Assembly (NCBI GenBank): GCA_964413645.1
Contig: CAYPSA010000001.1
Span: 8,389-72,388, forward strand
Direction: 5' to 3'
From: an uncultured Gammaproteobacteria bacterium
Lineage (GTDB): Bacteria > Patescibacteriota > Microgenomatia > UBA1406 > HO2-37-13b
DNA: 64,000 nt
Notes under the pieces: generated by a model
What the model saw: the letters and a program-made list of their open reading frames with translations, nothing else
Told to the model about the DNA's origin: nothing
Databases searched by the model: none
Made by a program: the position numbers and the translations under genes
In this document: positions 27,393-44,868 of the stretch, piece by piece
Layout of the letters: every line of letters begins with the position of its first letter
Position numbering within the stretch: the first letter of the stretch is position 1

Positions 27393-27866
27393 ATGGATAG
27401 AATCATGGGCATCTCGCAGCTCGTGGCCTTTTTCCTGCTTGTCGCGCTAGCCATTTGGACACTCCATCAGAATAGTCGGCTGAAGGCTGATTTGAAGAGA
27501 AGGATAGAAGTGGATAGGGACGTCAAGTTCTATACGTCGCACTTCCTTCACTTCCACATCAATAGAATCATAGAACGTTTCCCACTACAAGGAGATCGGA
27601 AGGAGGTAGTTAAAGCGACTGAGATACGTAAGCTCGTGATGAGGAGACTCATTGAAGAGATCATGCGGTTAAGACCTGCGTCGATCGTACAATGGCTTCC
27701 GATTATTCTCGAGCGGGTACAGAACCTTTCCACCGATGCACGTTGGTGGGATCCAGATCTTGTAATGCTTAGTCGAGATGAGGTTTACAATCTGATCGTC
27801 TACTCGTTAGAACCAACACAACCCGCTCCACAACAGAGCGTACAAGAGGATGGCTCCGCGCAGTAA
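27393..27866 (+). CDS. Island ORF1: hypothetical protein with N-terminal TM helix (157 aa)
   Basis: ORF preceded by leader A; G/C-ending codon preference; no recognisable domain. Confidence 0.55.
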   Translation: MDRIMGISQLVAFFLLVALAIWTLHQNSRLKADLKRRIEVDRDVKFYTSHFLHFHINRIIERFPLQGDRKEVVKATEIRKLVMRRLIEEIMRLRPASIVQWLPIILERVQNLSTDARWWDPDLVMLSRDEVYNLIVYSLEPTQPAPQQSVQEDGSAQ

Positions 27867-27880
27867 TCAGAACTCCCCAC

Positions 27881-27924
27881 GACAATCACCCGATTGTCAC
27901 CAACATCTTCCTAAGGGAAGAGAA
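27881..27924 (+). promoter_or_regulatory. Leader block A, copy 2, upstream of island ORF2
   Basis: 3 mismatches over 44 nt to copy 1; AAGGAG 7 nt before the ATG. Confidence 0.7.
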
Positions 27925-27935
27925 GGAGTAGGACC

Positions 27936-28169
27936 ATGCTTATGCTCGATGCATTGCTCAAGCGGATCTACGATCTGGATAGGGTAGAACAGTTGTTTGC
28001 TGCTGCAATAGTAGTAATAACACTGCTGGAAGATCTGGTCAAAAAGCTTGATGAGCTCAATCTGGTCGAGTCTTACGTCGTGAATCGCATCAACAGCCTC
28101 AAGCTTGATCTGCTGCAGAGCCAATTGGACATGATCACAAGGATAGCTCAAGAAGAAGGAGCTCGTTGA
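27936..28169 (+). CDS. Island ORF2: small Leu-rich, probably helical protein (77 aa)
   Basis: AAGGAG SD at 7-nt spacing; no recognisable domain. Confidence 0.5.
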   Translation: MLMLDALLKRIYDLDRVEQLFAAAIVVITLLEDLVKKLDELNLVESYVVNRINSLKLDLLQSQLDMITRIAQEEGAR

Positions 28170-28179
28170 CGGTTCGGAT

Positions 28180-28237
28180 TTAAGCACTTCGCACCCGCGA
28201 ATTGTCCGCCAGTCGGAAAAAAACAACCATCCGGTCG
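28180..28237 (+). promoter_or_regulatory. Leader block B, copy 1, upstream of island ORF3
   Basis: 16-nt identical core GCGAATTGTCCGCCAG plus flanking similarity (..AAACAAC..TCCGGTCG) shared with copy 2. Confidence 0.7.
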
Positions 28238-28259
28238 TACTGCCAAAAGGAGAATTGCC

Positions 28260-29063
28260 GTGAAGAAGTCGGTCTTGGATCAAGTCAAGCGCGGAACCGC
28301 TGAATGGGTTGTGGGTCATGCCATGTGGCAGAAGAGCCAAGGCAGGAAGCCATCGGAACCCTATGGCAACATCCGCAATCCACAGCACGCGTATCGTGCT
28401 GCATTGTCGGATCTGTTCTACTCGACCCCCCCCGCAGGCAGTTACGTTGATCATTACATCGCATGGATGGTCAAGGTCGCTACCCTCATTCGTTTGCCGA
28501 TGTGCTCGGTTTTCAACGGTGTTAACATCACCGTGTGGCCGGGCGACATCCCTGATGATCTTGCGCGTGCCTATCGCAACGAATGCGAGCGTCGCCACCA
28601 GGAGTACTTGAACTCTCCGGAGTACAAGCTTGCTCTACGGAAAGCCAAGGAAGCCCAGCGTGCACGCAATGCACAGCTAAGGGAATTCCTTGCTGTTGCA
28701 CCCAAGAAGATGACTTGCATTGATGTGCGGTTGTGGCGTGATCTCTACAAGAAGAATACCGACCCCTATGGTCGTGCTATTCTTTCCTACGCCTCACGCT
28801 GGGCTCGAATCATGGAAGGTCAGATCAACAACGGTCGTGTCTTGGAAGACTGTGCTAACGAAGCAAGTCATGTTGGTGATAGCGAAGGCATCACTGGCTT
28901 CATGTATGGCATGGCCGTATTCATCCTGTCACGGGTCTGGGTTCATGGTGACCAGCTTCGACGTTGGCACAACCGCTCAACCCAGATCAGCGACGAAGGC
29001 GATCGTGCAAATGAAGAAGGAGGAGTCTTGAATCCAGCAGTTCTCATCATTGGCGCAAGCTGA
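28260..29063 (+). CDS. Island ORF3: hypothetical protein (267 aa, GTG start)
   Basis: AAGGAG 7 nt upstream of the GTG; Trp/Arg-rich; no recognisable domain. Confidence 0.6.
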   Translation: MKKSVLDQVKRGTAEWVVGHAMWQKSQGRKPSEPYGNIRNPQHAYRAALSDLFYSTPPAGSYVDHYIAWMVKVATLIRLPMCSVFNGVNITVWPGDIPDDLARAYRNECERRHQEYLNSPEYKLALRKAKEAQRARNAQLREFLAVAPKKMTCIDVRLWRDLYKKNTDPYGRAILSYASRWARIMEGQINNGRVLEDCANEASHVGDSEGITGFMYGMAVFILSRVWVHGDQLRRWHNRSTQISDEGDRANEEGGVLNPAVLIIGAS

Positions 29064-29072
29064 TACCAATTC

Positions 29073-29129
29073 TTAGCACTACGCCCCGCGCGAATTGTCC
29101 GCCAGCCGTAATAAAACAACTTCCGGTCG
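29073..29129 (+). promoter_or_regulatory. Leader block B, copy 2, upstream of island ORF4
   Basis: See copy 1. Confidence 0.7.
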
Positions 29130-29153
29130 CATCAATCACGGGAAGGTCCAGTC

Positions 29154-29360
29154 ATGAGAAGTCTCAAGCAGTTCCTCGATGAACACTTCGAGGATAACTA
29201 TGCTGGTCAGCTTGACCAGGCTATCGCCCTTGCACGTGCCTTGTTCGAGACGCTCTCTAAGTTGGGGCGTAATGACGGCATGAGAGATCTCTCCGGACAA
29301 GCCTTCGAGATGATCAAGCGTCTCATTGACGAAATGCACGATCAGTTCGGCTCACGCTGA
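29154..29360 (+). CDS. Island ORF4: small acidic, probably helical protein (68 aa)
   Basis: GGAAGG 7 nt upstream; no recognisable domain; an antisense ORF of equal size also exists. Confidence 0.45.
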   Translation: MRSLKQFLDEHFEDNYAGQLDQAIALARALFETLSKLGRNDGMRDLSGQAFEMIKRLIDEMHDQFGSR

Positions 29361-29406
29361 GTAAACAACCAAATAGCCCACTCCACTGCCCACCCCGGGC
29401 AACTCC

Positions 29407-29427
29407 AATCGTCTTAAAGACGATTTT
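29407..29427 (+). terminator. Hairpin AATCGTC-TTAAA-GACGATT followed by TT
   Basis: 7-bp stem 46 nt after the island ORF4 stop; short U tract. Confidence 0.4.
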
Positions 29428-29456
29428 GCAGAGTCTGCAAGCAACCAAGTGCAATT

Positions 29457-29534
29457 AGAGCACGAGTTTGAAATGGGTAGCTTTCGCTACTTTGTGACTT
29501 CTGTCACCATTTCTATAAACCTCGTGCTCTTTTT
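29457..29534 (+). ncRNA. Branched stem structure ending in a U tract (complex terminator or small structured RNA)
   Basis: P1 AGAGCACGAG/CTCGTGCTCT, P2 GAAATG/CATTTC, hairpins GTAGC-TTTC-GCTAC and GTGAC-TTCT-GTCAC, then TTTTT. Confidence 0.4.
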
Positions 29535-29539
29535 GTATG

Positions 29540-29545
29540 TATAAT
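29540..29545 (+). promoter_or_regulatory. -10 box TATAAT, 6 nt before the radA ATG at 29552
   Basis: Read directly. Confidence 0.5.
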
Positions 29546-29551
29546 ATCCCC

Positions 29552-30838
29552 ATGTCCTACCTGTGTACTTCTTGCGGTGTAACGTCAGCTTCGTGGTACG
29601 GTAAATGCCCTGAATGTAGCAATTGGAACACGCTCGTTGCTCAGGCACCGGTCAACAAAAAAAGTAAAGGATCTGCCAAGTCATCGACCCCTGCAAAAAT
29701 CACTCCTATGTCTAGCATTTCAAGCCTCACCTCAAATCGCATTCCCGTGGGCATTCACGAGGTCGATAGAGTGTTGGGCGGCGGTTTTATGGGTGGGGAA
29801 GTCATTTTGCTTGCTGGCCAGCCAGGAGTAGGAAAATCAACACTCCTTTTATCTGCGCTTACGGGTAAAAGGACACTCTATGTTTCAGGTGAAGAATCTG
29901 GTGAGCAAGTCCGCCACCGCGCCGATCGACTTGGCGTCGATATCAATAATTTCGCCTTTTCCGATACAGTTGCAGTGGAATCATTACTAGAGCTCTTAGA
30001 AAGTAATGCCGCAGACTACGATGTTGTCGTCATCGATTCTATTCAAACCATATACTCAGAATCTATGAAAAACACCTTCGGAAGCACTTCACAAATTAAA
30101 GAAGCAGCAAGCGCGCTTATCGACGTTGCTAAAAAAAAGAACCTCGTTATGATAATTGTAGGCCACATAACCAAAGAAGGCGACATCGCCGGTCCTAAAA
30201 CGCTCGAACATTTGGTCGACTGTGTTCTTTATTTGGAAGGAGCAAAAGACTCGCAATACCGTCTTCTACGAGCCCAAAAAAACCGATTTGGTTCAACCGA
30301 TGAAGTTGGTGTTTTTGAAATGGGCGAGAAAGGACTTAACGAAGTTAAAAATCCTGCGGTTTTCATTAATCAAGCTGCCATCTCCGAGCCTGGCCGAGTA
30401 ATTGTTGCAGTTCCCGAAGGCTCCCGGTCACTTTTTTTTGAAGTTCAATGTCTCGTTGTCCCAACTACCCTCAACTTTCCCCGCCGAGTGGTTTCTGGCG
30501 TTGATTACAATAAAGTACAACTGCTCCTCGCCGTTCTTCAAAAGAATGCGCGCCTACCGCTCGATAAATTTGATGTCTATGTTAATGTTGTTGGGGGAAT
30601 TTCGATTAAGTCTACTGCGGCGGATTTGGGAGTAGTTACCGCAATTTTTTCTTCAATTAAAAATAAGCCTGTTTCTTCAAAATCGGTATTTACCGGTGAA
30701 ATTGGGCTACTTGGGGAAGTGCGTGCGGTTCTTGGAGAAGAAAAGCTGATCAAAGAAGCAAGTCGCTTCGGATTTTCCAAAGTCTATTCTTCAAAAAATC
30801 TCACATCAGTAAACGCCATTGCATCGGTTCTGAAATAG
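29552..30838 (+). CDS. radA: DNA repair protein RadA/Sms
   Basis: Zn finger CTSCGV..CPEC, Walker A GQPGVGKST, KNRFG motif, Lon-like C-terminus; start trimmed to MSYLCTSCG. Confidence 0.93.
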   Translation: MSYLCTSCGVTSASWYGKCPECSNWNTLVAQAPVNKKSKGSAKSSTPAKITPMSSISSLTSNRIPVGIHEVDRVLGGGFMGGEVILLAGQPGVGKSTLLLSALTGKRTLYVSGEESGEQVRHRADRLGVDINNFAFSDTVAVESLLELLESNAADYDVVVIDSIQTIYSESMKNTFGSTSQIKEAASALIDVAKKKNLVMIIVGHITKEGDIAGPKTLEHLVDCVLYLEGAKDSQYRLLRAQKNRFGSTDEVGVFEMGEKGLNEVKNPAVFINQAAISEPGRVIVAVPEGSRSLFFEVQCLVVPTTLNFPRRVVSGVDYNKVQLLLAVLQKNARLPLDKFDVYVNVVGGISIKSTAADLGVVTAIFSSIKNKPVSSKSVFTGEIGLLGEVRAVLGEEKLIKEASRFGFSKVYSSKNLTSVNAIASVLK

Positions 30839-30842
30839 TCCC

Positions 30843-30871
30843 TTGCAAATCCACACATTGTTCGTTATAAT
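30843..30871 (+). promoter_or_regulatory. Sigma-70-type promoter of tuf (TTGCAA - 17 nt - TATAAT)
   Basis: -35 at 30843-30848, -10 at 30866-30871; about 45-nt AT-rich leader without SD. Confidence 0.6.
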
Positions 30872-30920
30872 TCAGTTTTAGTCATTACAAATTATTAATT
30901 TCAATTAATCAAACAAAACT

Positions 30921-32105
30921 ATGGCACAGGACAAATTTGATCGTAATAAACCTCATTTGAACATTGGAACCATTGGTCACGTCGATCATGGTAAAACTAC
31001 GTTAACATCGGCTATTCATACCGTTCTTTCTAAAAAAGGTCTTGCAAAGGCCATGAAATACGAAGAAATTGATAAAGCTCCTGAAGAAAAAGCTCGAGGA
31101 GTAACCATTAACATTCATCACTCTGAATACGAAACCATGAAGCGTCACTATGCTCATATTGATGCTCCAGGACACGCTGATTACATTAAGAACATGATTA
31201 CCGGTGCCGCTCAAATGGACGGTGCTATCTTGGTCGTTTCAGCTCCCGATGGACCAATGCCACAAACCCGAGAACACTTGCTCTTGGCTCAACAGGTTAA
31301 CGTTCCTGCAATTGTCGTTTTCTTAAACAAATGCGACATGGTCAAAGATCCAGAAATTCTCGAATTGGTCGAAATGGAAGTCCGCGACTTGCTTAGCAAG
31401 TATGGCTACCCAGGAGACACCACACCTATCATTCGAGGTTCAGCTCTTAAGGCAATCGAAGGCGATGCAGAAGCTGAAAAAGCTATCGAATCGCTCATGG
31501 ACACAGTTGATGAATTTGTCCCAGAACCAACTCGTGATGTTGATAAACCATTCCTTATGCCAGTTGAAGACGTCTTCACCATTCAAGGTCGAGGAACTGT
31601 CGTAACCGGTCGTGTTGAACGAGGAATCTTGAAACTTAACGAAGAAGTAGAAATCGTTGGGCTTAAAGAAACCCAAAAAACAGTCGTAACTGGTATCGAA
31701 ATGTTCAAGAAATTACTTGACGAAGCTCGAGCCGGCGACAACGTTGGACTTCTTATTCGAGGAATCGAAAAAGAACAAGTCGAACGTGGACAAGTTATTG
31801 CTAAGCCAAAGTCAATCACCCCACATACTGAATTCGAGGCTGAAATCTATGTCTTGAAGAAAGAAGAAGGTGGTCGACACAGCCCATTCTTCACTGGATA
31901 TCGTCCACAGTTCTACATCCGAACTACCGACGTTACCGGAGAAGTTACTTTAGACAAATCAATTGAAATGGTTATGCCTGGTGATAACGTAAAAATTAAC
32001 GCCAAGCTTATCTACCCAGTTGCTTTGGAAGAAGGCCTGAAGTTTGCTATTCGCGAAGGCGGACATACCGTTGGAGCAGGAGTAGTAACCAAGGTTACTA
32101 AATAA
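30921..32105 (+). CDS. tuf: Elongation factor Tu
   Basis: [21 protein letters not shown] motifs; 394 aa. Confidence 0.98.
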
Positions 32106-32117
32106 GAATTTAAACGC

Positions 32118-32146
32118 TATAGGGGGCGGGGAAACCTGCCCCTATA
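32118..32146 (+). promoter_or_regulatory. Hairpin TATAGGGG...CCCCTATA between tuf and rpsJ, no U tract
   Basis: 8-bp stem read directly. Confidence 0.35.
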
Positions 32147-32173
32147 AGCTAATTGCACATTAATAAAACGTAT

Positions 32174-32485
32174 ATGCCAAAAGGCAAAATAAGAATACGA
32201 CTTAAATCGTACGACCACAGACTAATCGATGAAACCTGTCAAAAACTGGTAGATACTGCTACCAAAACAGGAGCATCATTTGTTGGACCTATTCCATTGC
32301 CTACTAAAAAGGAAGTATACGTTGTTCAAAAAGCAACATTCATCGACAAAGATAGCCGCGAACACTTCGGACTCAAAATTCATAAACGCCTGATCGACAT
32401 CGTCAATCCAACCAATCAGACCATCGACTCACTTATGCATCTCGATCTTCCTGCCGGAGTCAATATTGAGGTTAAGATGGGGTAA
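32174..32485 (+). CDS. rpsJ: 30S ribosomal protein S10
   Basis: [19 protein letters not shown].. S10 sequence; start trimmed to ATG 32174. Confidence 0.96.
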
Positions 32486-33541
32486 ATGGAAAATACAGAT
32501 AGAGAATCAAAGGTAGAAACTCATGGATGGCAAACAACTTCTATTGCATTACCTACCGCACAGCAAATACAAGCCTTGACCGAACGCGTAGATGTTAATT
32601 GGCTACCAACTCATGTAAGGAGACCGTTAGATGAATTAAAAAGGTTTGCAGAAACTCCTGATTGTGCTATGATCGTGTTAAGACCGCCTTTAGGTCTTGG
32701 CGATAAAGTAATTCACCTGCGACATGTTGTTGGATATGCTCGCCATTTTCCTGATAAACAGTTTTTTTTACATCCCGAACATATTCCTCTGTATGGACGA
32801 TTTGATTTGCCTTCAAACGTGGTTGTCGAAAATAAAGAACCAGAAAAAAGTGTAATACCTATAGATCTGTATGAGCTCAGTCAGCCATATGAAAGGTCTG
32901 GACAAATGTCAATTTTCCGTGACTTGGCTTTAATGAGTGCATTATCGACCGTTACGGAAATAGACGTTTCTTTATATGATAAGCCGATTGTTAATCTTGA
33001 TGAAAATCTACTAAATATGCCACCGACGCATGATGTCATTATTTTTCCAGATGCATTTGAAATCGAAGAGGACGCTGGTTCATATTTCAAATCACAGAAA
33101 TCAATTGATGCAACAAAATGGCGTATGATATTCGATCGCTTGTCCAAAGAATTACGAATTGCGCTGGTTATAGGTACATCACACGAGGAATATTGTGCAG
33201 ATGTCATTGATCAAGCTGACCGAAGCGGATATGGGGTAACAGTAGTGCGGGGTAATCTTGATCACGTGATGAATGCTATATTGAAAGCTCATAAATTTGT
33301 GGGTATGGATTCTGGAACGACACATCTGGCAGCGCAAGTTATTCGAGCGGCGCAGTTAAAGGGTCGAACCATTGCATTTCGCGAATTAATGGCCCCAATT
33401 TTTTCATTGCAATCGTATGGAATTACTGGTGCAGCGTTTAAGACTCTTAACTATCAAGATGCAGGAAGATGGGATCTTGATTTAAGAGTATCTATGTCCG
33501 ACATTGATCCTCAACTCGCTGCTGATTTTATCATGTCTTAA
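32486..33541 (+). CDS. Glycosyltransferase family 9 (heptosyltransferase)-like protein inserted in the S10 operon
   Basis: ATG directly follows the rpsJ TAA; N-terminal LRPPLGLGDKVIHLRHVVGYARHFPD and C-terminal GMDSGTTHLAAQ resemble GT9 motifs (R.S.LGD...; GNDSGPMHLAAA). Confidence 0.5.
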   Translation: MENTDRESKVETHGWQTTSIALPTAQQIQALTERVDVNWLPTHVRRPLDELKRFAETPDCAMIVLRPPLGLGDKVIHLRHVVGYARHFPDKQFFLHPEHIPLYGRFDLPSNVVVENKEPEKSVIPIDLYELSQPYERSGQMSIFRDLALMSALSTVTEIDVSLYDKPIVNLDENLLNMPPTHDVIIFPDAFEIEEDAGSYFKSQKSIDATKWRMIFDRLSKELRIALVIGTSHEEYCADVIDQADRSGYGVTVVRGNLDHVMNAILKAHKFVGMDSGTTHLAAQVIRAAQLKGRTIAFRELMAPIFSLQSYGITGAAFKTLNYQDAGRWDLDLRVSMSDIDPQLAADFIMS

Positions 33542-33582
33542 CCCCCTGCATTCTTCCCCTTTATTTTCTCGCACTCTTCATG

Positions 33583-33588
33583 TATAAT
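33583..33588 (+). promoter_or_regulatory. -10 box TATAAT in the 168-nt spacer before rplC
   Basis: CATGTATAAT; weak -35. Confidence 0.35.
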
Positions 33589-33661
33589 TTCCATTAATGA
33601 CGAATTGGTTGTCATCAAACGACGTTTAAGACTTTTCAGATTGAGCGAGCCTCAGTAATAA

Positions 33662-33685
33662 GGCCCCAATCTGGGGTCTTTTTTT
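33662..33685 (+). terminator. Intrinsic terminator/attenuator GGCCCCA-ATC-TGGGGTC followed by T7, 25 nt upstream of rplC
   Basis: 7-bp GC-rich stem followed by seven T. Confidence 0.6.
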
Positions 33686-33709
33686 GTGTTACGTATTTAG
33701 CGTACAAAT

Positions 33710-34543
33710 ATGATTGGTTTTATACTAGGAAAAAAAGGAATTACAAAACGAATGTTTGACGAAAAAGGAAATCAAATTCCTGTCACGCATATCAGCACCA
33801 AACCTTGTTACGTGGTGGCTGTTACAAAAAATCCAGCTGGTACTCCTATGTCTGTTAAGTTGGGTTTTTGGGAAAGCAAAAACGTCTCAAAACCACAACT
33901 TGGAGAACTCACCGCAGCGGGCATTAAAACCCCGCTTCGTTTTTTTAAGGAAATCCGTATTGATAAAAAGCTAACTCGTGCCGGACAAACAGTCGAAATG
34001 ATTGAAAGCAATGGTAAAACCGGACTTAAAATTGGACAACATGAATTATTTGCTGGAAGTGAAATTAAACCTTCACAATTGTTTGAGCTTGGAAATCTTG
34101 TTTCAGTTACCGGAACTTCCAAAGGTAAAGGATTTGCTGGCGTTGTAAAACGTCACAAGTTTGCCGGTGGTCCTCGAACACATGGTCAGTCTGATCGTGA
34201 ACGAGCTCCCGGATCAATTGGAATGGGAACCACTCCAGGTCGTGTTTTTAAAGGTAAACGCATGGCAGGTCGTATGGGTTCTGATAGAACAACCGTATTT
34301 GGATTAGCAGTTGTAGAAACCACCGATGATGAATTATGGGTAAAAGGATTAGTTCCAGGCCCTAAAGGAACATTATTGGAAATTGTTACACTTGACGCCA
34401 AACACGAAGCTCCTATTGTTGAAGAAGTAATTGAAGAGCAAGTCGAAGTTGCTGAGCCAGTTGCAGAAGTGGCTCCAGAAGCTCCTGCTGAAGAAGTAAC
34501 AAGTGCAGAACCATCAGAAGTTATATCTGAAGAAAAAGCATAA
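33710..34543 (+). CDS. rplC: 50S ribosomal protein L3, with acidic C-terminal extension
   Basis: L3 core (GKGFAGVVKRHKFAGGPRTHG); about 45-aa E/A/P-rich tail. Confidence 0.96.
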   Translation: MIGFILGKKGITKRMFDEKGNQIPVTHISTKPCYVVAVTKNPAGTPMSVKLGFWESKNVSKPQLGELTAAGIKTPLRFFKEIRIDKKLTRAGQTVEMIESNGKTGLKIGQHELFAGSEIKPSQLFELGNLVSVTGTSKGKGFAGVVKRHKFAGGPRTHGQSDRERAPGSIGMGTTPGRVFKGKRMAGRMGSDRTTVFGLAVVETTDDELWVKGLVPGPKGTLLEIVTLDAKHEAPIVEEVIEEQVEVAEPVAEVAPEAPAEEVTSAEPSEVISEEKA

Positions 34544-34545
34544 TT

Positions 34546-35253
34546 ATGGTAGAAAAAAAGACCGTATCCACTAAAGCAGTAAAATCAACCTCGAAGGTTG
34601 TCAAAAGCGTTTCAAAAGACGTTTCAGCTCCTTTGTATGATCTTGATGGAAAATCAGCCGGAACCGTTTCGCTTCCTGGTGAACTTTTCAATATTACCAA
34701 CTCTCCACAATTACTTGCTCAATATGTACGAGTATATCTTGCAAATCAACGACAAGGAACCGCTTCAACCAAAACTCGAAGCGAAGTTACTGGTTCAACT
34801 CGAAAAATTTACAAGCAAAAAGGAACGGGTCGAGCACGACATGGTGCAGACAAAGCTCCTATTTTTGTAGGCGGAGGAGTTGCTTTTGGTCCTCGACCAC
34901 AAGATCACACCCTTTCACTTACCAAAAAACAACGAACCAAAGCACTTCTTATGACGCTCTCCGCTCATGTCGAAAATAAGTCGCTCTCAGTTGTTACTAT
35001 GGCCAAAGCCACCGGAAAAACTAAACAAATGAATTCATTATTCACTGCACTCAAAGCCCCCAAAGGCACCATGTTTGTATATTCATCAACTGTTTCAAAT
35101 GCAGCGGCCGGAGCATCTAATTTGCCAACAGTGCGAAGTGTTGATGCATCTATCCTGAATGCATACGATGTCATTCGAGCAAAGCATGTTGTTTTTGCGC
35201 AAGAAGCATTAAGCCATTTCTTAGAAGTTCGACAAAAAAACAATGAGAATTAA
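34546..35253 (+). CDS. rplD: 50S ribosomal protein L4
   Basis: L4-like sequence ([11 protein letters not shown]). Confidence 0.95.
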
Positions 35254-35530
35254 CGATATTATCATCCAGCCTCACTTAACCGAAAAAGCAGTCGGTAAAT
35301 CAAAATTGACCGTATATTCCTTTGAAGTTGCACTTTTGGCTTCTAAAGACAATATTCGCAATGCAGTTGAAGAGCTTTTCTCAGTAAAAGTCGATCGTGT
35401 TCGAACGGTTGTTCGCAAAGGCAAATTCAAACGAACCGGTCGTAAGATGATTACCAAACAACGACCAGATCGAAAAATTGCATATGTTACCGTAAAAGAA
35501 GGAACAATTAGTGTATTCCCACAAGCATAA
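35243..35530 (+). CDS. rplW: 50S ribosomal protein L23
   Basis: L23-like sequence; conserved position. Confidence 0.93.
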   Translation: MRINDIIIQPHLTEKAVGKSKLTVYSFEVALLASKDNIRNAVEELFSVKVDRVRTVVRKGKFKRTGRKMITKQRPDRKIAYVTVKEGTISVFPQA

Positions 35531-35531
35531 T

Positions 35532-36320
35532 ATGAAAACAAAAACAAAAGTTATTAGCAAAGTCAGTAAGAAAGTCGCTCGAACCAAGCGATTAACCGAA
35601 ATTCTAAAAAAGCATTCCGGTAGAAATTTCACTGGTACCGTGAGCGTTCGTCATCAGGGCGGTCGTCAAAAACGCATGTATCGACATGTCGATTTTAAAC
35701 GTGCCGGCGATCTTAAAGGTACCGTATTGAGTATTGAATACGATCCAAATCGAACATCACATATTGCATTAGTTGATTTCGGTGATAAAGATCTGCGATA
35801 CATCTTAGCTCCTCACGGACTTGAAGCAGGAGCAACTGTAGAATCCGGGGCAAATGTAGAACTTGTTGTTGGAAACACACTTCCATTATCATCAATCCCA
35901 CTTGGAGCAGAAGTTCATAATGTAGAACTGTATCCAGGTCAAGGAGGACAACTTGCCAAAAGCGCTGGAACACTTGCAATTGTTGTTGCTAAAGATGGTT
36001 TATACGCCGACATTAAGCTTCCATCCAAAGAAATTCGAAAAGTATTATTAACATGCTTGGCAACAATCGGACGTATTTCAAATATTGAACGCAAACACGA
36101 AGTTATTGGAAAAGCCGGACGCGCGCGACTTATGGGTATTCGTCCAACCATTCGAGGAGTTGCTCAAAATCCACGCTCACATCCACACGGTGGAGGAGAA
36201 GGTAAGACCGGAGAAGCAATGCATCCAAAAACACGTCAGGGTAAGTCAGCACGAGGTACTCGAACACGTGATAAGAAGAAATGGAGTTCTAAATTAATCG
36301 TCAAACGACGAAAACCATAA
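35532..36320 (+). CDS. rplB: 50S ribosomal protein L2
   Basis: GGGEGKTG, MGIRPTIRGVAQNP motifs; start trimmed to the ATG in the TAATATG junction. Confidence 0.96.
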   Translation: MKTKTKVISKVSKKVARTKRLTEILKKHSGRNFTGTVSVRHQGGRQKRMYRHVDFKRAGDLKGTVLSIEYDPNRTSHIALVDFGDKDLRYILAPHGLEAGATVESGANVELVVGNTLPLSSIPLGAEVHNVELYPGQGGQLAKSAGTLAIVVAKDGLYADIKLPSKEIRKVLLTCLATIGRISNIERKHEVIGKAGRARLMGIRPTIRGVAQNPRSHPHGGGEGKTGEAMHPKTRQGKSARGTRTRDKKKWSSKLIVKRRKP

Positions 36321-36324
36321 ACAT

Positions 36325-36792
36325 ATGGAATCATTAACATACATTAAATACAACCGAATTTCGCCAAAAAAATTGCGATTTATTCTTGACGATGTCAAGA
36401 AATTCACGCCTGAACAGGCCATTGTACGGCTTGAATACAGTCCACTTCGAACAAGTAAGTTACTTGCTAAAGCTCTTAGTAGTGCGCTATCTAATGCATC
36501 TGCAGCTTTAAAAATAGATAAAAATTTGTTACAATTCAAGACACTGCTTGTGGAAGAAGGCCCACAATTAAAAAGAATGCGTCCAGGATCTCGCGGAATG
36601 GGCAGAATGTTTAAACGCAGAAGTAGTCACATCAAGATTGTATTAGTGGGTAAGGAGAGCGCAAGTGTGTCAACCTCACAGGTTACCAGTGCGCAGACAA
36701 GCCCGGAGGTTGCCGAAAAAGCAGAAGTTATAAAACCAAAAGTTACAAATAAACCCGCCGGGCAGAGCCCTCTGGGCGGCGCCAAAAAATAA
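36325..36792 (+). CDS. rplV: 50S ribosomal protein L22, with C-terminal extension
   Basis: L22 core; follows rplB after 4 nt, with no rpsS in between. Confidence 0.93.
   Translation: MESLTYIKYNRISPKKLRFILDDVKKFTPEQAIVRLEYSPLRTSKLLAKALSSALSNASAALKIDKNLLQFKTLLVEEGPQLKRMRPGSRGMGRMFKRRSSHIKIVLVGKESASVSTSQVTSAQTSPEVAEKAEVIKPKVTNKPAGQSPLGGAKK
36754..36783 (+). repeat. 30-nt GC-rich segment shared with 9658-9687 (encodes PAGQSPLGGA)
   Basis: CCCGCCGGGC......CTCTGGGCGGCGCC. Confidence 0.7.
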
Positions 36793-36793
36793 T

Positions 36794-37447
36794 ATGGGTC
36801 AAAAAGTTCATCCAAAAGGTTTACGGCTCGGAATCACCCAACCATGGGATTCCCGATGGATGTTTGGAAGCAAACGAATGTTCCGTGAAACTTTACTCGA
36901 TGACATTAAAATTCGAGCTGGTCTTATGGAAGCATTTAAATTCGCACATGTAACACGTGTTGAAATTGAACGTGCTATTAACAAAATCGTAATCACGTTA
37001 CATGCTGTTAAACCAGGAATGCTTATTGGCCGAGGTGGAAAAGGCTTGGAAGATGTAAAGAAATTTGTTACCGATATTGTCGGACAAGCTCGAATTGAAA
37101 AAGAAAAAATTAAAATTGATCTTAAAATTGAACCGGTCAAAAAGCCATACTTGAATGCATATTATGTTGCAACCGACATTGCCGGAAAAATTGTCCGAGG
37201 ATTGCCACACCGAATTGTCATTCATCATACACTTGACCGTGTTATGGAATCAGGTGCCAAAGGAGTCAAGATTCAATTGGGTGGACGTATTAATGGAGCA
37301 TCAATTTCACGACGAGAAAAATATTATCAAGGAACCGTGCCAGTTTCTACCATCCGTGAAGATGTAGATTTCGCATTGTTCCCAGCATTAACAAAATCAG
37401 GATATGTAGGAGTTAAAGTATGGATTTCTCGAAAAGAGGAAGAATAA
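36794..37447 (+). CDS. rpsC: 30S ribosomal protein S3
   Basis: MGQKVHPKGLRLG N-terminus; KH domain. Confidence 0.96.
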   Translation: MGQKVHPKGLRLGITQPWDSRWMFGSKRMFRETLLDDIKIRAGLMEAFKFAHVTRVEIERAINKIVITLHAVKPGMLIGRGGKGLEDVKKFVTDIVGQARIEKEKIKIDLKIEPVKKPYLNAYYVATDIAGKIVRGLPHRIVIHHTLDRVMESGAKGVKIQLGGRINGASISRREKYYQGTVPVSTIREDVDFALFPALTKSGYVGVKVWISRKEEE

Positions 37448-37451
37448 AAGT

Positions 37452-37856
37452 ATGTTATCACCAAAACGTCAAAAACATCGTAAAACATTTCGGGGAACAT
37501 GGCGACGAATTGCCGTAAAAGGTGAAGAAGTTAATTTTGGTAGTTTTGGTATAAAGTCAGCCGATCAAGGGTGGATTACTGATCGACAAATCGAAGCGTG
37601 CCGAGTTATTTTGGCCCGATCAACACGAAAAGTAGGAAAATTTTGGATTCGTATTTTTCCTGACAAACCATATACTAAAAAACCACCAGAAGTAACGATG
37701 GGATCAGGTAAAGGAGAAGTATCGCACTTTGTTGCATCAGTCGTTCCGGGTCGCGTAATTTTTGAAGTCGACGGTCTTGATGAAGCATTAGTAAAAAAAA
37801 TGCATAAAAATATTTCATCAAAGTTGCCTATTAAAACCATGATGGTTGCCAAATAA
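37452..37856 (+). CDS. rplP: 50S ribosomal protein L16
   Basis: MLSPKRQKHRK N-terminus. Confidence 0.96.
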   Translation: MLSPKRQKHRKTFRGTWRRIAVKGEEVNFGSFGIKSADQGWITDRQIEACRVILARSTRKVGKFWIRIFPDKPYTKKPPEVTMGSGKGEVSHFVASVVPGRVIFEVDGLDEALVKKMHKNISSKLPIKTMMVAK

Positions 37857-37857
37857 T

Positions 37858-38061
37858 ATGAAAAAAAACGATATTAAAAAATTACATGATGAAACAGCTG
37901 TTTCATTACTCAAAAAAGCGCAAACGCTTAAAAGCGAACTTGCAACGTTGCGAGTAAATGCACGGAATAATCCTCCAAAGGATACAAATACCGTAAGTAA
38001 AAAAAAGAAAGAATTAGCAATTTTATTAACCGTAGCACACTTAAAAGCTACAACAAACTAA
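37858..38061 (+). CDS. rpmC: 50S ribosomal protein L29
   Basis: Position and L29-like helical sequence; start at the TAATATG junction. Confidence 0.88.
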   Translation: MKKNDIKKLHDETAVSLLKKAQTLKSELATLRVNARNNPPKDTNTVSKKKKELAILLTVAHLKATTN

Positions 38062-38062
38062 T

Positions 38063-38305
38063 ATGGCACAAACAGTAGTCGGAAAAGTTGTTTCAACCAA
38101 AATGCAAAACACCGTCGTTGTGTCAGTTGAGCGTTCATTTAAAATGCCAATTTACAAGAAGATCATCCGACGTCATAAAAAATATAAAGCACATAATGAA
38201 GACCTTTCAATTAACGAAGGTGATACCGTAGAAATTGTTCGATCACGACCAATTTCAAAAGATAAGCATTTCAAAGTATTAAAAGTTATCGAAAAAGCCC
38301 AATAA
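38063..38305 (+). CDS. rpsQ: 30S ribosomal protein S17
   Basis: VGKVVSTKMQNTVVVSVER S17 pattern. Confidence 0.94.
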   Translation: MAQTVVGKVVSTKMQNTVVVSVERSFKMPIYKKIIRRHKKYKAHNEDLSINEGDTVEIVRSRPISKDKHFKVLKVIEKAQ

Positions 38306-38308
38306 CAC

Positions 38309-38683
38309 ATGTTGCAATTACGATCAGTCATGACCGTTGCCGATAATACCGGCGCCCGCTTGGCCTATATGATAGGTATTCCAGGTCGTGGAAATAAAAA
38401 AATTGCAAGTATTGGCGATGTTATTATGGTTGTCGTTAAGGAAGCCGATCCTCATGCACAAGTTAAGCGAGGAGACAAATTCCCGGCAGTAATTGTTCGC
38501 ACTGCCAAAGAAGTGGGTAGAAAAGACGGTAGCTATATTCGATTTGATGAAAATGCATGTGTTATTTTGAATGCAAAAGATGAGAAAGATCCAAAGGGAA
38601 CTCGTGTATTTGGACCAGTCGCTCGAGAAGTAAAAGAAGCAGGATTTAACAAAATTGCCAGTTTAGCACCAGAAATTTACTAA
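38309..38683 (+). CDS. rplN: 50S ribosomal protein L14
   Basis: VADNTGAR motif. Confidence 0.96.
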   Translation: MLQLRSVMTVADNTGARLAYMIGIPGRGNKKIASIGDVIMVVVKEADPHAQVKRGDKFPAVIVRTAKEVGRKDGSYIRFDENACVILNAKDEKDPKGTRVFGPVAREVKEAGFNKIASLAPEIY

Positions 38684-38689
38684 AAATAT

Positions 38690-38995
38690 ATGAAATTACG
38701 AAAAGGCGATAACGTTATTGTTACCGCAGGAAAAGACAAAGGGAAAAAGGGAAGTATTGATCGCGTATATCCTAAGCAACACAAAGTGTTGGTTAAAGAT
38801 GTAAATATGTACAAAAAACATATTAAAAAAACCGATCAAAACCCAGCAGGTGGCCTTGTAAGCTTACCTCGTCCTTTAGCTGATGCAAAAGTAGCATTAG
38901 TATGCCCAAAATGCAAAAAAGCAACCAGAGTTGGATATGAAATTGATGGAAAAGCCAAATTCCGTCGTTGTAAAAAATGTGGACAACGAATTTAA
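38690..38995 (+). CDS. rplX: 50S ribosomal protein L24, with Cys4 (CPKC...CKKC) C-terminal knuckle
   Basis: KGDNVIVTAGKDKGKKG KOW motif; CxxC x2 near the C-terminus. Confidence 0.94.
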   Translation: MKLRKGDNVIVTAGKDKGKKGSIDRVYPKQHKVLVKDVNMYKKHIKKTDQNPAGGLVSLPRPLADAKVALVCPKCKKATRVGYEIDGKAKFRRCKKCGQRI

Positions 38996-38997
38996 CT

Positions 38998-39540
38998 ATG
39001 AAATACAAAGATTATTATTTGCAAGAAATTGTGCCAGCACTTAAAAAAGATCTCAAAATTGAGAATATCTTTCAAGTGCCAAAAATGAAAAAAGTCGTCG
39101 TTAACGTTGGAGCAGGTGAAGCGGCAACCGACAAAAAAGTGTTGGATCGTGTAACCGCCGACTTAACTGCAATTACCGGTCAAAAGCCAGTAATTACAAA
39201 AGCGCGAAAATCAATTTCAGCATTCAAGATTCGAAAAGGATTAGCTATCGGAGCAAAAGTCACCTTGCGCGGCGATAAAATGTATGACTTTGTCGAGAAG
39301 TTATTCAAAATCGTATTGCCACGTATTCGCGATTTCCGAGGCGTCAGCATGACTGGTGTCGACGATCGTGGAACCTTTAATTTGGGCATGACCGATCAAA
39401 CCCTGTTTCCTGAGATCGAATATGATAAAATAGACAAGATTCGAGGATTACAAATAACAATTGTCACTACTGCTCAATCTAAAGATGATTTGGTTGCTTT
39501 CTTGAAATTGTTAGGATTACCATTTGAGGTCAAAGTTTAA
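38998..39540 (+). CDS. rplE: 50S ribosomal protein L5
   Basis: L5-like sequence; start trimmed to MKYKDYYLQ. Confidence 0.95.
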
Positions 39541-39541
39541 T

Positions 39542-39727
39542 ATGGCTAAAAAATCAAGCGTTTTAAAATTTCAACACGAACAAAAATTTGCAACACGCAA
39601 TGTGAATCGTTGCCCACTTTGTGGACGTGCACGAGGATACATTCGCCGATTTGGGTTATGTCGCATTTGTTTCCGAACAAAAGCATTACAAGGAGAAATT
39701 CCTGGAGTTACAAAAGTTTCTTGGTAA
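39542..39727 (+). CDS. rpsN: 30S ribosomal protein S14, type Z (zinc-binding, 61 aa)
   Basis: [22 protein letters not shown]. Confidence 0.95.
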
Positions 39728-39730
39728 ATT

Positions 39731-40015
39731 ATGTCACGATCATCTAAAAAAGGACCATACGTCGACGAAAAATTATTGAAAAAAGTACTTTCTCAAAAAG
39801 ATGGTGCTTCTCGAACTGCTATTAAAACATGGCGTCGAGAAAGTCAGATTCCACCTGAATTTGTGGGAGTAACATTTGCAGTACATAATGGCAAGAAATT
39901 TATCGATGTATTAGTTTCTGAATCAATGGTCGGACATCGTCTTGGTGAATTTTCACCATCACGAACATTTAAGGGACACGGAAAAGTTACCAAGCGAGTA
40001 CTTGACAAGACATAA
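39731..40015 (+). CDS. rpsS: 30S ribosomal protein S19 (at a non-canonical position)
   Basis: [33 protein letters not shown]19 signature. Confidence 0.95.
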
Positions 40016-40019
40016 TATT

Positions 40020-40409
40020 ATGAAAAACCAAGCATCAGATTTACCAATCAGAATTAAAAACGGGTATTTAGCTCAAAAGCCATCAATCGTTGTTGATGAC
40101 ACTAAAATGAATCGTGTCATTCTTGACCTTCTTAAATCAGAAGGATACATTGGTGCTTTTGCCCAAAAAGGTGAAGGAGTCAAATCATATATCGAAGTCG
40201 ACTTGTTATATAAAAATAGAATGCCTGCTTTGTCAGGAGTCAAGATTATTTCAAAACCAGGTCGCCGAGTATACGAATCTGTCAGAACTATTAAACCAGT
40301 TTTGGGTGGATTGGGTGTTGCTATTATTTCAACACCAGCCGGTATGATTACCGACAAAATGGCTCGTGAAAAGAAAGTCGGCGGTGAAGTGTTATTTTAC
40401 ATGTGGTAA
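40020..40409 (+). CDS. rpsH: 30S ribosomal protein S8
   Basis: S8-like sequence (IRIKNGYLA.., GGEVLFYMW end); start trimmed. Confidence 0.95.
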   Translation: MKNQASDLPIRIKNGYLAQKPSIVVDDTKMNRVILDLLKSEGYIGAFAQKGEGVKSYIEVDLLYKNRMPALSGVKIISKPGRRVYESVRTIKPVLGGLGVAIISTPAGMITDKMAREKKVGGEVLFYMW

Positions 40410-40413
40410 AACT

Positions 40414-40956
40414 ATGTCTAAAGTAGGAAATAAATTAATTACAATTCCAAGTGGCGTAACCGTTACGATTACTCCCACAGAAGTCACGGTAGCCGGATCA
40501 CACGGTCAGCTTAGTGTGCCCGTTCCAAGTGTTATTACCGTTACCCAAGATGGGGAAAATTTGACCGTAACTCGTTCAAATGAAACGGCTCATACCAAGG
40601 CATTGCATGGATTAACACGAACACTTATTAATAACGCAGTTATTGGCGTTGAAAAAGAATGGGAAAAAAATTTGGAAGTTGTTGGAACCGGATATCGTGT
40701 AAAACAAGCCGGTGAAAATTTAACATTCGAAGTCGGATATTCCCACAATATTGAATTTAAAAAAGTAGATGGAGTTACATTTGTAGTTGGCGGAAACAAC
40801 AAAGTAAAAATTGTTGGAATCGACAAACAACTAGTAGGCGAAGTCGCATTTAAAATTAAGGCATTAAAGAAACCAGATCCATACAAAGGAAAAGGGATCC
40901 GATATGAAGGTGAAGTTATTCGTTTGAAAGCAGGAAAGAAAGCTAAAACAGCATAA
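40414..40956 (+). CDS. rplF: 50S ribosomal protein L6
   Basis: MSKVGNKLITIPSGV N-terminus; start trimmed. Confidence 0.95.
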   Translation: MSKVGNKLITIPSGVTVTITPTEVTVAGSHGQLSVPVPSVITVTQDGENLTVTRSNETAHTKALHGLTRTLINNAVIGVEKEWEKNLEVVGTGYRVKQAGENLTFEVGYSHNIEFKKVDGVTFVVGGNNKVKIVGIDKQLVGEVAFKIKALKKPDPYKGKGIRYEGEVIRLKAGKKAKTA

Positions 40957-40959
40957 CCT

Positions 40960-41301
40960 ATGAAAATTACCGCAGCAAATCGTAGAAAAAAAAGAGTTCG
41001 ATCAAAAATCGTTGGAGTAAGTGTATATCCACGATTAAGTATTTTCCGATCGAACAAGCATATTTCAGCTCAGCTTATTGCCGATGACAAAGGTCATACA
41101 TTAGCTGCAGAAAGTGATTTGACAACCAAAACAGAAAAAGCAACCAAAACAGAAAAAGCAAAAGCAGTTGGTCTTGCACTTGGAAAAAAAATTATGGATT
41201 TGAAAATTAAGCAAGTCGTATTCGATCGTGGTTCATATAAATACGATGGTCGTGTTAAAGCAGTTGCAGAAGGTGTACGTGAAGCAGGAGTTATAATCTA
41301 A
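40960..41301 (+). CDS. rplR: 50S ribosomal protein L18
   Basis: RLSIFRSNKHISAQLIDD, FDRGSYKYDGRVKA motifs. Confidence 0.95.
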   Translation: MKITAANRRKKRVRSKIVGVSVYPRLSIFRSNKHISAQLIADDKGHTLAAESDLTTKTEKATKTEKAKAVGLALGKKIMDLKIKQVVFDRGSYKYDGRVKAVAEGVREAGVII

Positions 41302-41309
41302 ACTAAATT

Positions 41310-41825
41310 ATGGCATACGAAAAAAAACGAGAATCAAAAGACGGCATCGAAGAAAAAGTATTGTTGATTCGCCGAGTTTCTAAAAAAACAACCGGAGGAA
41401 ACCAAATTAACTTTTCAGCGCTCGTCGTTGTCGGCGATCATGCCGGAAAAGTCGGAGTAGGATTGGGTCGTGGTTTGGAAGTCCCACAAGCAATCAAGAA
41501 AGCTATTGCTTATGCTCGAAAACACATGATTATTGTTCCTATGCGAAATGGAACTATTCCTCATGAAGTCAGAACAAAACATCATGCTGCTGTTCTTATT
41601 CTTAAACCAGCCCCAGTCGGAGTCGGTTTGAAAGTGGGAAGTGTCGTTCGATCAATCTTAAGTTTGGCCGGTGTTACTAATGCATCAGCAAAAATTCTCG
41701 GATCCCGAAATCATATTGCTAATGCATATGTCACCATCAAAGCGCTTGCAAGTCTAAAAAGTCACAAAATTTCTGAAACCAAAAAAGGTGCAAAGAAAGA
41801 AACTGTAGTAACTACAGCTAAATAA
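41310..41825 (+). CDS. rpsE: 30S ribosomal protein S5
   Basis: IRRVSKKTTGG.., GVGLGRG motifs. Confidence 0.95.
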   Translation: MAYEKKRESKDGIEEKVLLIRRVSKKTTGGNQINFSALVVVGDHAGKVGVGLGRGLEVPQAIKKAIAYARKHMIIVPMRNGTIPHEVRTKHHAAVLILKPAPVGVGLKVGSVVRSILSLAGVTNASAKILGSRNHIANAYVTIKALASLKSHKISETKKGAKKETVVTTAK

Positions 41826-41830
41826 TACCT

Positions 41831-42256
41831 ATGAATACACTACATACATTACCAAAATTAGTTACTAAATCCGCCGATATCATCGGACGAGGATACGGTT
41901 CACGCCGAGGTGCCAAATCAGGACGTGGAACTACCCGACACCAAGCTGCTCGAGAAAAAATTAAAGAAGATTATGAAGGTGGACAAAACAAACTAACAAA
42001 AAAATTCCCACTTTTACGAGGAAAGGCTCGTAATAAATCAATCCAGCCAATGCGTGTAACGGTTTCATTAACTGAACTTTCAAAAATGCCAGCAAAAAGT
42101 ACCGTTACTCTTGAATCACTCGTGCAAGCGGGGATAATTAGCAAGCAAGATGCCCCTCGCGGTGTTAAAATAGTTAATATCGGAGAAATTACTAAACAGT
42201 TGGACATTCAAGTCCCTATTAGTAAGACAGCGGCTAAAAAAATTGCTAATATATGA
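41831..42256 (+). CDS. rplO: 50S ribosomal protein L15 (directly after rpsE; no L30 gene)
   Basis: GRGYGSRRGAKSGRGTT motif. Confidence 0.93.
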   Translation: MNTLHTLPKLVTKSADIIGRGYGSRRGAKSGRGTTRHQAAREKIKEDYEGGQNKLTKKFPLLRGKARNKSIQPMRVTVSLTELSKMPAKSTVTLESLVQAGIISKQDAPRGVKIVNIGEITKQLDIQVPISKTAAKKIANI

Positions 42257-43542: not shown

Positions 43543-43551
43543 TAATTAACT

Positions 43552-43725
43552 ATGGCAAAAAAAAGTTCACGAATCAAAGTAGGACTTGAATGCACTGTTT
43601 GCAAAAGCCACAATTACGTGACCGACCGAAATAAGGTCAACACAACTGAGAGCTTAAAACTTCTCAAATTTTGCAGCAGGTGTAATAAACGAACCGAGCA
43701 CAAGGAAAAGAAGAAATTACATTAA
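43552..43725 (+). CDS. rpmG: 50S ribosomal protein L33 (Cys4 form, 57 aa; not in the ORF track)
   Basis: Hand translation MAKKSSRIKVGLECTVCKSHNYVTDRNKVNTTESLKLLKFCSRCNKRTEHKEKKKLH. Confidence 0.88.
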   Translation: MAKKSSRIKVGLECTVCKSHNYVTDRNKVNTTESLKLLKFCSRCNKRTEHKEKKKLH

Positions 43726-43728
43726 TCA

Positions 43729-44853: not shown

Positions 44854-44868
44854 AATTCTTTTTTATCT

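Follow-up and report, generated by a model that had tools for sequence, protein, structure and literature searches.

How the synthesis of ribosomal proteins is kept in balance is poorly known outside a few model bacteria, and the literature that we searched held no account of it for the Candidate Phyla Radiation (CPR, or Patescibacteria), whose members have tiny genomes, unusual ribosomes and, in the case studied here, no Shine-Dalgarno (SD) sites. The locus described below raises the question of what decides whether RNA polymerase enters the main ribosomal protein operon of such an organism. It lies in a 64,000-nt stretch of contig CAYPSA010000001.1 (the window), in which a 168-nt spacer (33542–33709; all coordinates are in window numbering) separates a GT9-like gene from rplC, the gene for ribosomal protein L3. 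A sequence-only reading had reported in this spacer a TATAAT box, a hairpin ATGAC-GAATTGGTT-GTCAT and a strong intrinsic terminator, all of which are present where it placed them, and had proposed an autoregulatory leader analogous to that of the Escherichia coli S10 operon. Our analysis supports a conserved promoter-plus-terminator leader with an alternative antiterminator pairing, and the spacer is probably a trp-like, ribosome-dependent transcription attenuator, of the leader-peptide type, for the L3-L4-L23-L2-S19... operon.

Elements of the rplC leader

Read 5' to 3' on the plus strand, the spacer has a candidate promoter whose −10 box, TATAAT (33583–33588), is preceded at 17-nt spacing by a weak −35-like hexamer, TTTATT (33560–33565), as identified in the parse of the family. 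The ATG of a 10-codon open reading frame (ORF; 33597–33629) lies 8 nt past the −10 box; this mini-ORF would encode MTNWLSSNDV and is closed by UAA at 33627–33629. Within it, and including its AUG, is the hairpin P1 (33597–33615), which RNAfold extends from the ATGAC/GTCAT stem to 7 bp (AUGACGA/UUGUCAU, loop AUUGG; −5.3 kcal/mol). The terminator hairpin, GGCCCCA-AUC-UGGGGUC (33662–33678), has a 7-bp GC-rich stem (−11.1 kcal/mol for the hairpin alone) and is followed by a U7 tract (33679–33685), where an attenuated RNA of ∼90 nt is predicted to end. Between the mini-ORF and the terminator is a strand (33630–33652) that can pair with 33661–33678 and is made up of GAC (33630–33632), the core CAGATTGA (33637–33644) and GCCT (33649–33652); we refer to it as the 5' strand of the antiterminator. 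This strand and the mini-ORF go beyond the elements listed by the sequence-only reading, and the whole element spans ∼130 nt.

The T-run of the terminator ends 24 nt before the rplC ATG (33710), and a small hairpin, UACGU-AUUUA-GCGUA (33690–33704), lies just 5' of the start codon in the minimum free energy (MFE) fold. The interval after the terminator is too short for a promoter, which bears out the earlier claim that transcription of rplC must read through the leader. The hairpin could also be read as a mere terminator of the upstream gene, but this reading was rejected because a conserved promoter lies 5' of the hairpin and there is no space for one on its 3' side.

Taken from this single sequence, the signals are modest. 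The terminator was the top-ranked plus-strand match in a terminator scan of 18 kb (28–46 kb), while the promoter, kept off the scan's list by its weak −35 hexamer, is not significant on its own, and the spacer as a whole did not fold better than its shuffled versions (z = −0.83). It is comparison with relatives that lifts the elements above chance.

Conservation of the leader in relatives

Relatives were first gathered by similarity of L3. The eight closest, with L3 52–85% identical, come from genomes labelled Candidatus Roizmanbacteria or Woesebacteria (CPR Microgenomates), and all eight have the same element directly upstream of rplC, with an identical 14-nt terminator core, GCCCCA(A/G)TCTGGGG. 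The window itself stems from a Roizmanbacteria-like member of the CPR. Among the eight relatives, the gene 5' of the leader varies, being GT9-like in L001, rpsJ in L002 and L008, and MazG-like plus P-type ATPase in L004–L007. A metagenome scan with the terminator core as query yielded 120 places, or 128 occurrences when the window and the earlier loci are included. The core lies just upstream of an L3 gene (L3 45–65% identical) in 89 of the 128, which gives 75 distinct leaders. Elements were parsed on all 75, and frame and fold tests were run on 64 leaders, representing 27 sequence clusters.

The usual layout is the rpsJ stop codon, TTGACn-17-TATAAT, 7–10 nt, ATG, a hairpin, C(A/G)GATTGG, 6–16 nt, GCCCCAATCTGGGGC, a T-run and rplC. 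In 74 of the 75 leaders, the parse gave TATAAT as the −10 box. The −35 hexamer is TTTACT in L001 and L002 and TTGACn in the majority of relatives, and in the more distant ones the promoter as a whole is near consensus (TTGACn-17-TATAAT). Among the 66 leaders with enough upstream sequence, rpsJ adjoins the promoter in 42, its end falling 67–190 nt before the terminator, and inserted genes of 0.3–5.7 kb lie between rpsJ and the leader in 18. In most relatives, the rpsJ stop codon is 10–20 nt 5' of the leader promoter.

The leader-containing spacer of the window is 87% identical to that of its closest relative, L001, compared to 64–77% for third codon positions of the flanking genes, 72% for the tuf-rpsJ spacer and 56% for the GT9-like gene. 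A covariance model of the 3' module, applied to 754 kb, gave strong matches at rplC leaders only, with one match in the window; a weak match in L033 (Ratteibacteria) proved on inspection to have a different architecture and was set aside. Judged from these comparisons, the leader is tied to rplC rather than to the upstream gene, is ancestral to rplC in this clade and is widespread in Microgenomates. It was not put in front of rplC by the GT9-like insertion: rpsJ commonly stands next to the promoter, and the GT9-like gene and other cargo were inserted upstream of it.

Mutually exclusive pairings in the leader RNA

The core CAGATTGA is the reverse complement of CCAATCTG, which comprises the upper 5' arm of the terminator, its loop and the first bases of its 3' arm. 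The family consensus of the core is C(A/G)GATTGG, and, with G-U pairs allowed, the 8-mer is complementary to CCAATCTG at 8/8 positions in 57 of the 75 leaders and at 7/8 or more in 69. For a control, we used 31 unrelated terminators with the same core, where the mode was 5/8 and 8/8 occurred just once. When the antiterminator pairing was scored on alignment A2, 94% of cells were paired, compared to 13–57% with the partner slid, and the substitutions seen are those that G-U wobble tolerates (A or G facing U, U facing A or G). Covariation, which the sequence-only reading had proposed to look for, is seen at the bottom pair of the terminator stem (AU 46, GC 10); for the antiterminator it comes down to a single compensatory change (see below).

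With the 3' arm of the terminator omitted, as during transcription, the antiterminator is the MFE structure in 63/64 leaders; at full length, the terminator is the MFE structure in 47/64, so that the two states are closely balanced. In the window, the antiterminator is extended beyond the core, with GAC, right after the stop codon, pairing with GUC (33676–33678) and GCCU pairing with AGGC (33661–33664), and spans the terminator's two arms and its loop (33661–33678). The MFE fold of the free window RNA consists of P1 plus the antiterminator (−25.1 kcal/mol), and blocking pairing for at least 3 nt past the stop codon makes the terminator the MFE fold (−17.0 kcal/mol). Given that 3 nt suffice, a ribosome at the stop codon would favor termination in the window under any footprint model. 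At the position of P1, relatives have a hairpin of varying sequence whose stability relative to shuffles is modest (mean z = −0.98, n = 73), and which includes the AUG in many lineages.

Frame constraint on the mini-ORF

The ATG lies 7–10 nt (mode 9) past the −10 box in 66 of the 75 leaders. Based on the −10 box alone, this spacing predicts a 5' untranslated region of 0–3 nt, i.e. a leaderless or near-leaderless ORF. The frame set by the ATG stays open for 8–18 codons, and its first stop falls 2–17 nt before the antiterminator 8-mer in 63/64 leaders (26.5/27 clusters). The same pattern is given by the +1 and +2 frames in 11/64 and 17/64 leaders, respectively, and by dinucleotide shuffles with a mean probability of 0.18. 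The ATG frame never runs into the antiterminator in these leaders, and the stop-to-antiterminator spacing peaks at 6–7 nt (30 leaders). Insertions of ∼21–24 nt in P1 keep the ORF in frame and the stop at the same spacing from the antiterminator, and in L205, a member of the window's own subfamily, indels of +3 and −3 likewise preserve the frame.

Conservation does not extend to the peptide, and the RNA motif GTTCGGGAA falls in three different frames, which together indicate a constraint on translation itself rather than on the peptide. The leader ORFs encode heterogeneous peptides with no common run of control codons, a feature of the amino-acid subclass of attenuators only. We see no explanation besides translation for a frame-specific constraint of this strength.

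Proposed mechanism

In the attenuator that we propose, the σ70-type promoter would start the RNA at or within ∼3 nt of the AUG at 33597, which would open the 10-codon ORF containing P1 and ending at the UAA. The antiterminator 5' strand, directly past the stop codon, would pair with the terminator at its top and along both arms. In ribosome-free RNA, the antiterminator would form first and RNA polymerase would read into rplC, such that antitermination would be the default. Once a ribosome has translated the mini-ORF and stands at its stop codon, it would remove the 5' part of the antiterminator, the terminator would fold, and transcription would end at about 33685. By these steps, transcription of the operon would go up when ribosomes are scarce, slow or stalled and down when translation capacity is ample. 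The analysis shows the elements, their conservation, the frame constraint, the competing pairings and the energetic flip in the window; the start site, translation of the ORF, the polarity in vivo and across the family, and the physiological signal are what we infer. P1 may act as a pause hairpin, an initiation timer or a kinetic gate for ribosome loading.

A bolder version, which we offer tentatively and consider somewhat doubtful, is that the main ribosomal protein operon of the SD-less Microgenomates might be controlled by the ribosome itself rather than by a ribosomal protein repressor. The near-leaderless 10-codon ORF would then sense free or functional ribosomes: prompt translation to the stop codon would collapse the antiterminator and abort transcription, while scarce, slow or drug-stalled ribosomes would lead to read-through and more ribosomal proteins.

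Several observations weigh against the proposed attenuator. Since the terminator core served as the search pattern, its invariance in the metagenome set is partly due to ascertainment. Only one compensatory change was found in the antiterminator (in L188), and the support for this pairing is therefore conservation, not covariation. The extreme invariance of the GCCCCAAUCUGGGG core could instead reflect a protein-binding site. For the flip to occur family-wide, the ribosome must exclude pairing for ∼10 nt or more beyond the stop. A second class of stop codons, 13–14 nt from the antiterminator (13 leaders), is too far away, and these leaders, termed type A, have an anti-antiterminator pairing, GUUCGGGAA:UUUCCGGAU, that could give the opposite polarity. 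RNAalifold, run on 18 type A leaders to look for P1 covariation, returned this anti-antiterminator, with no compensatory changes. The modal 9-nt spacing from the −10 box is rather long for a strictly leaderless start, and 9/75 leaders have no ATG at the usual place. As there are no evident control codons, the sensed signal is a guess. Finally, P1 is missing from three short forms (L097, L147 and L177), of which L147 and L177 have an ATG frame that continues through both antiterminator and terminator and ends past the U-tract; these short-form leaders may be degenerate, or may use pyrBI-type coupling.

Alternative explanations

The sequence-only reading had in mind autogenous attenuation. In such a scheme, excess L4 (or L3, S19 or another product of the operon) would bind the leader and favor the terminator, in the manner of L4 at the E. 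coli S10 leader or of L20 and L10 in B. subtilis, leaving the mini-ORF a secondary role. A position before a ribosomal protein operon is logical for such control, and a conserved GUUCGGGAAC loop forms an RNA-level motif in many relatives, although the window's subfamily is without it. Moreover, the invariance of GCCCCAAUCUGGGG and of C(A/G)GAUUGG across L3 proteins of ∼50% identity exceeds what pairing needs. A four-way pairing constraint, in which the upper part of the terminator must fit both its own stem and the antiterminator strand, can account for this invariance, however, and protein binding leaves the frame-specific ORF constraint unexplained. Similarity to rRNA points both ways: CCGGAUUGG is identical to E. 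coli 16S 1302–1310, with CGGAUUGA at the same place in a CPR 16S, but local similarity of the leaders to these rRNAs and to E. coli 23S is no better than that of shuffled leaders, and there is no match to the ribosomal protein leaders of Rfam. On balance, we consider this mechanism rather unlikely. A second alternative keeps the ribosome-dependent attenuator but inverts its polarity, with an ORF-internal segment sequestering the antiterminator strand, so that untranslated RNA terminates and translation, by freeing the strand, is positively coupled to transcription. In type A relatives, the conserved pairing noted above joins ORF codons 6–9 to the antiterminator strand, and in 22/64 leaders this strand is already engaged with upstream sequence when its 3' partner has yet to be transcribed; once that partner exists, however, the antiterminator is the MFE structure in all but one of the 64. 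The distribution of stop-to-antiterminator distances falls off sharply below 5 nt and the stop is never inside the antiterminator, as if the terminating ribosome must not disturb the pairing, and footprint masks of up to 8 nt leave the antiterminator intact in most leaders. On the other hand, the window and most clusters have no anti-antiterminator, and in the window it is the free RNA that forms the antiterminator and the RNA with a ribosome at the stop that forms the terminator. We regard the inverted scheme as distinctly unlikely.

Could the leader terminator simply be leaky? As a constitutive terminator or insulator, it might set a fixed ratio between the upstream unit (tuf-rpsJ-cargo) and the rplC operon, or stabilize RNA ends, with the ORF and the complementary strand being incidental. 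It is indeed the only terminator between the two units and the equilibrium MFE fold in most full-length leaders (the 47/64 given above). But a leaky terminator explains neither the promoter upstream of it, nor a complementary strand specific to rplC leaders, nor the frame constraint, making this account very improbable. The promoter-to-terminator unit might also be a gene in its own right, producing a ∼90-nt small RNA and/or a 10-residue peptide that acts in trans, as the trpL attenuator RNA and its peptide are described to do in Sinorhizobium meliloti (PMC6614838, PMC7298713). The unit is a complete transcription unit and its attenuated RNA would accumulate; yet the peptide shows no conservation, and every copy of the element is joined to rplC without an intervening promoter. 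We find a trans-acting product hardly credible as the purpose of the element, and a trp-like attenuator remains our preferred explanation.

The Rfam and rRNA comparisons were as follows. With Rfam 15, neither the window nor any of 12 related CPR loci scored above the gathering threshold of a ribosomal protein leader family, and the search of ribosomal protein leader models that the sequence-only reading had recommended gave no such match for the spacer even at E ≤ 10; these scans returned only tRNA, one 16S rRNA and chance terminator-like matches. Mimicry of rRNA was assessed by aligning seven representative leaders with E. coli 16S and 23S and with a CPR 16S (L062), rather than with the cognate Roizmanbacteria rRNAs, and since the local alignments were no better than for shuffles, mimicry is unsupported, though not disproved, by this comparison. 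The motifs CCGGATTGG and TTCGGGAAC are present in E. coli 16S (h42 and h33 region) and GTTCGGG in 23S near 2688; the CPR 16S retains only CGGATTGA, and none of the retrieved loci includes a 23S. The antiterminator strand CCGGAUUGG / UCAGAUUG (33636–33644) matches the conserved 5' strand of 16S h42 exactly (L210 = E. coli 16S 1302–1310; L062), an identity that is not significant versus shuffled leaders. With the leader lying downstream of rpsJ, no Rfam match, no significant mimicry of the rRNAs compared and a frame-conserved mini-ORF, the analogy to L4 control of the S10 operon falls away.

Comparison with known attenuators

The trp leader of E. coli has its stop codon a few nucleotides before region 2. 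The rplC leader shares with this and the other amino-acid leader-peptide attenuators of E. coli (his, leu, thr, pheA) a short leader ORF with an internal hairpin, a stop codon a few nucleotides 5' of the antiterminator strand, mutually exclusive antiterminator and terminator structures, and a U-tract terminator before the first structural gene. It differs in that it would control a ribosomal protein operon, lacks both a run of control codons and a conserved peptide, and has an ORF that is SD-less and predicted to be leaderless. In addition, the window has no 1:2 anti-antiterminator, and read-through, not super-attenuation, is the prediction for its untranslated RNA. The E. coli S10 leader, which is L4-mediated and NusA-dependent, is similar in placing a conditional intrinsic terminator in the leader of the L3-L4-L23-L2-S19... 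block. By contrast, the rplC leader follows rpsJ, shows no detectable homology to the S10 leader, and has a conserved mini-ORF and antiterminator strand, neither of which is used by the L4 mechanism.

Attenuators of antibiotic-resistance genes that depend on an upstream ORF (uORF) and ribosome stalling include those of Bacillus subtilis vmlR and bmrCD and streptococcal msrD (PMC9226507). Like the rplC leader, they have a short uORF in a 5' stem-loop, follow an anti-antiterminator/antiterminator/terminator (AAT/AT/T) logic and let translation status decide intrinsic termination (PMC9226507). However, their uORFs have an SD, they respond to specific drugs and they terminate by default (PMC9226507), whereas the rplC leader is predicted to read through by default and is aimed at ribosomal protein genes. 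The leaderless polycysteine small ORF attenuators of mycobacteria (10.1101/834739) also have a leaderless short ORF as first cistron and use the ribosome as sensor, the leaderless start being, in our case, a prediction from the −10 spacing. These act on translation, by unmasking a ribosome-binding site, and contain runs of Cys codons (10.1101/834739), whereas the rplC leader has an intrinsic terminator and U7 tract at its end, contains no codon run and resides in a genome with no SD sites to mask.

In a survey of ribosomal leaders, the only candidate upstream of rplC is an archaeal one, attributed to L4 in Archaeoglobi (PMC7247131). This candidate and the L20 and L10 attenuators of B. subtilis (PMC1865079, PMC4538822) are likewise cis-regulatory RNAs before ribosomal protein genes, and the B. 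subtilis examples involve terminator/antiterminator switching; in contrast to the rplC leader, all are bound by a ribosomal protein via an rRNA mimic and have no leader ORF, and none matches the rplC leader in sequence. Our literature searches on CPR or rplC leaders and on leaderless attenuators of ribosomal protein operons found no description of the element. Going by its sequence features, the rplC leader would work like the leader-peptide attenuators and depart from known systems in its target, its absent control codons and its predicted default state.

Gene neighborhood and other leaders

The local gene order is radA, tuf, rpsJ, the GT9-like gene, the spacer and rplC-rplD-rplW-rplB etc., with rpsJ, the GT9-like gene and rplC all on the plus strand. 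The GT9-like gene (32486–33541; 351 aa; Pfam PF01075, E = 2e-6) is inserted between rpsJ and the leader, beginning at the base after the stop codon of rpsJ (S10; 32174–32485; PF00338, E = 4e-33). The terminator scan found none after rpsJ or after the GT9-like gene, leaving the leader terminator as the only one that separates the two units. The first gene of the operon predicted to be regulated, rplC (33710–34543; 277 aa; PF00297), is followed by ∼20 tightly packed genes up to 43542 and by 28 up to 48923. It has no SD, which is normal here because the genome is without SD motifs: SD-like motifs are nearly absent among ∼34 consecutive genes in the window from 29000 to 49000. Starts in this region are usually preceded by A-rich sequence or by the stop codon of the previous gene. 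The organism appears to initiate translation independently of SD sequences.

A hot spot for insertions is found where rpsJ meets the promoter of the rplC leader; the cargo differs by lineage and always lies 5' of that promoter. Examples are the MazG-like gene plus an 800-aa P-type ATPase (L004–L007, ∼2100–4850) and small membrane proteins (L201, L209). The GT9-like gene has only seven relatives among 5.8 billion clustered proteins, 33–50% identical. Homologues occupy the same locus in L001 (3757–4833), L201–L207 and L209; the sole relative outside this slot, in L208 (1869–2948), adjoins YidD and toxin-antitoxin genes. The GT9-like proteins of the window and L001 are 37% identical in amino acid sequence, although the flanks are 83–92% identical at the nucleotide level. 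These comparisons suggest that the GT9-like gene is fast-evolving or repeatedly exchanged cargo that rides on ribosomal protein transcription.

Two further features of the region may be mentioned. A typical L3 has ∼210 aa; the L3 of the window has in addition an acidic C-terminal tail of ∼50 residues rich in Glu, Pro, Ala and Val (34390–34543), common to L001 and L201, which typical L3 proteins do not have. Just upstream of radA, an ORF (28260–29063) contains a Tad4 (Thoeris anti-defence) domain (PF25186, E = 1.7e-27). It falls within a GC-rich island (∼27500–29500; GC 0.48–0.53 versus ∼0.41), at which L001 has other genes, and this island may be a mobile or phage-derived insert.

Other lineages have other arrangements in front of rplC. 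In some CPR lineages, a different conserved leader combines a stem-loop, GGAAGAAAGAUC...GAAAACCUUCC, with a long hairpin on its 3' side, GGCUAGAAG...CUUCUGGCUUUUGUU (L030 4796–4989, L036 4712–4992, L049 4666–4989, L073 4726–4989; also L076 and L062). This leader matches no Rfam family, is not significantly similar to the rRNAs of E. coli, and may be a separate, undescribed ribosomal protein leader. A more distant lineage of Patescibacteria (L009, ∼4870–4990; L011, ∼1225–1345) has TACAAT, an ATG 8 nt on, a 12-codon ORF and a different terminator, GUGGCC-CGAU-GGCCAC plus U-tract, before rplC; from this layout, the mini-ORF-plus-terminator architecture may not be confined to the clade with the GCCCCAAUCUGGGG core. 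In Bacteroidota/Rhodothermales (L031, L035, L038, L039, L060, L061, L066 and L075), the rpsJ-rplC spacers are 550–660 nt long, compared to 10–40 nt in typical bacteria.

Implications

If our reading is correct, the rplC leader would be a widespread, sharply defined cis-element governing ∼20–28 ribosomal and translation genes. With its σ70-like promoter and length of only ∼130 nt, it should be amenable to standard coupled transcription-translation systems. For annotation, it serves as a marker of the transcription-unit boundary between rpsJ and rplC, which is also a hot spot for the insertion of cargo such as the GT9-like gene. In this leader, the logic of the amino-acid attenuators would have been put to a different purpose, and if the ribosome is the sensor, it would provide direct feedback from translation capacity to ribosome production.

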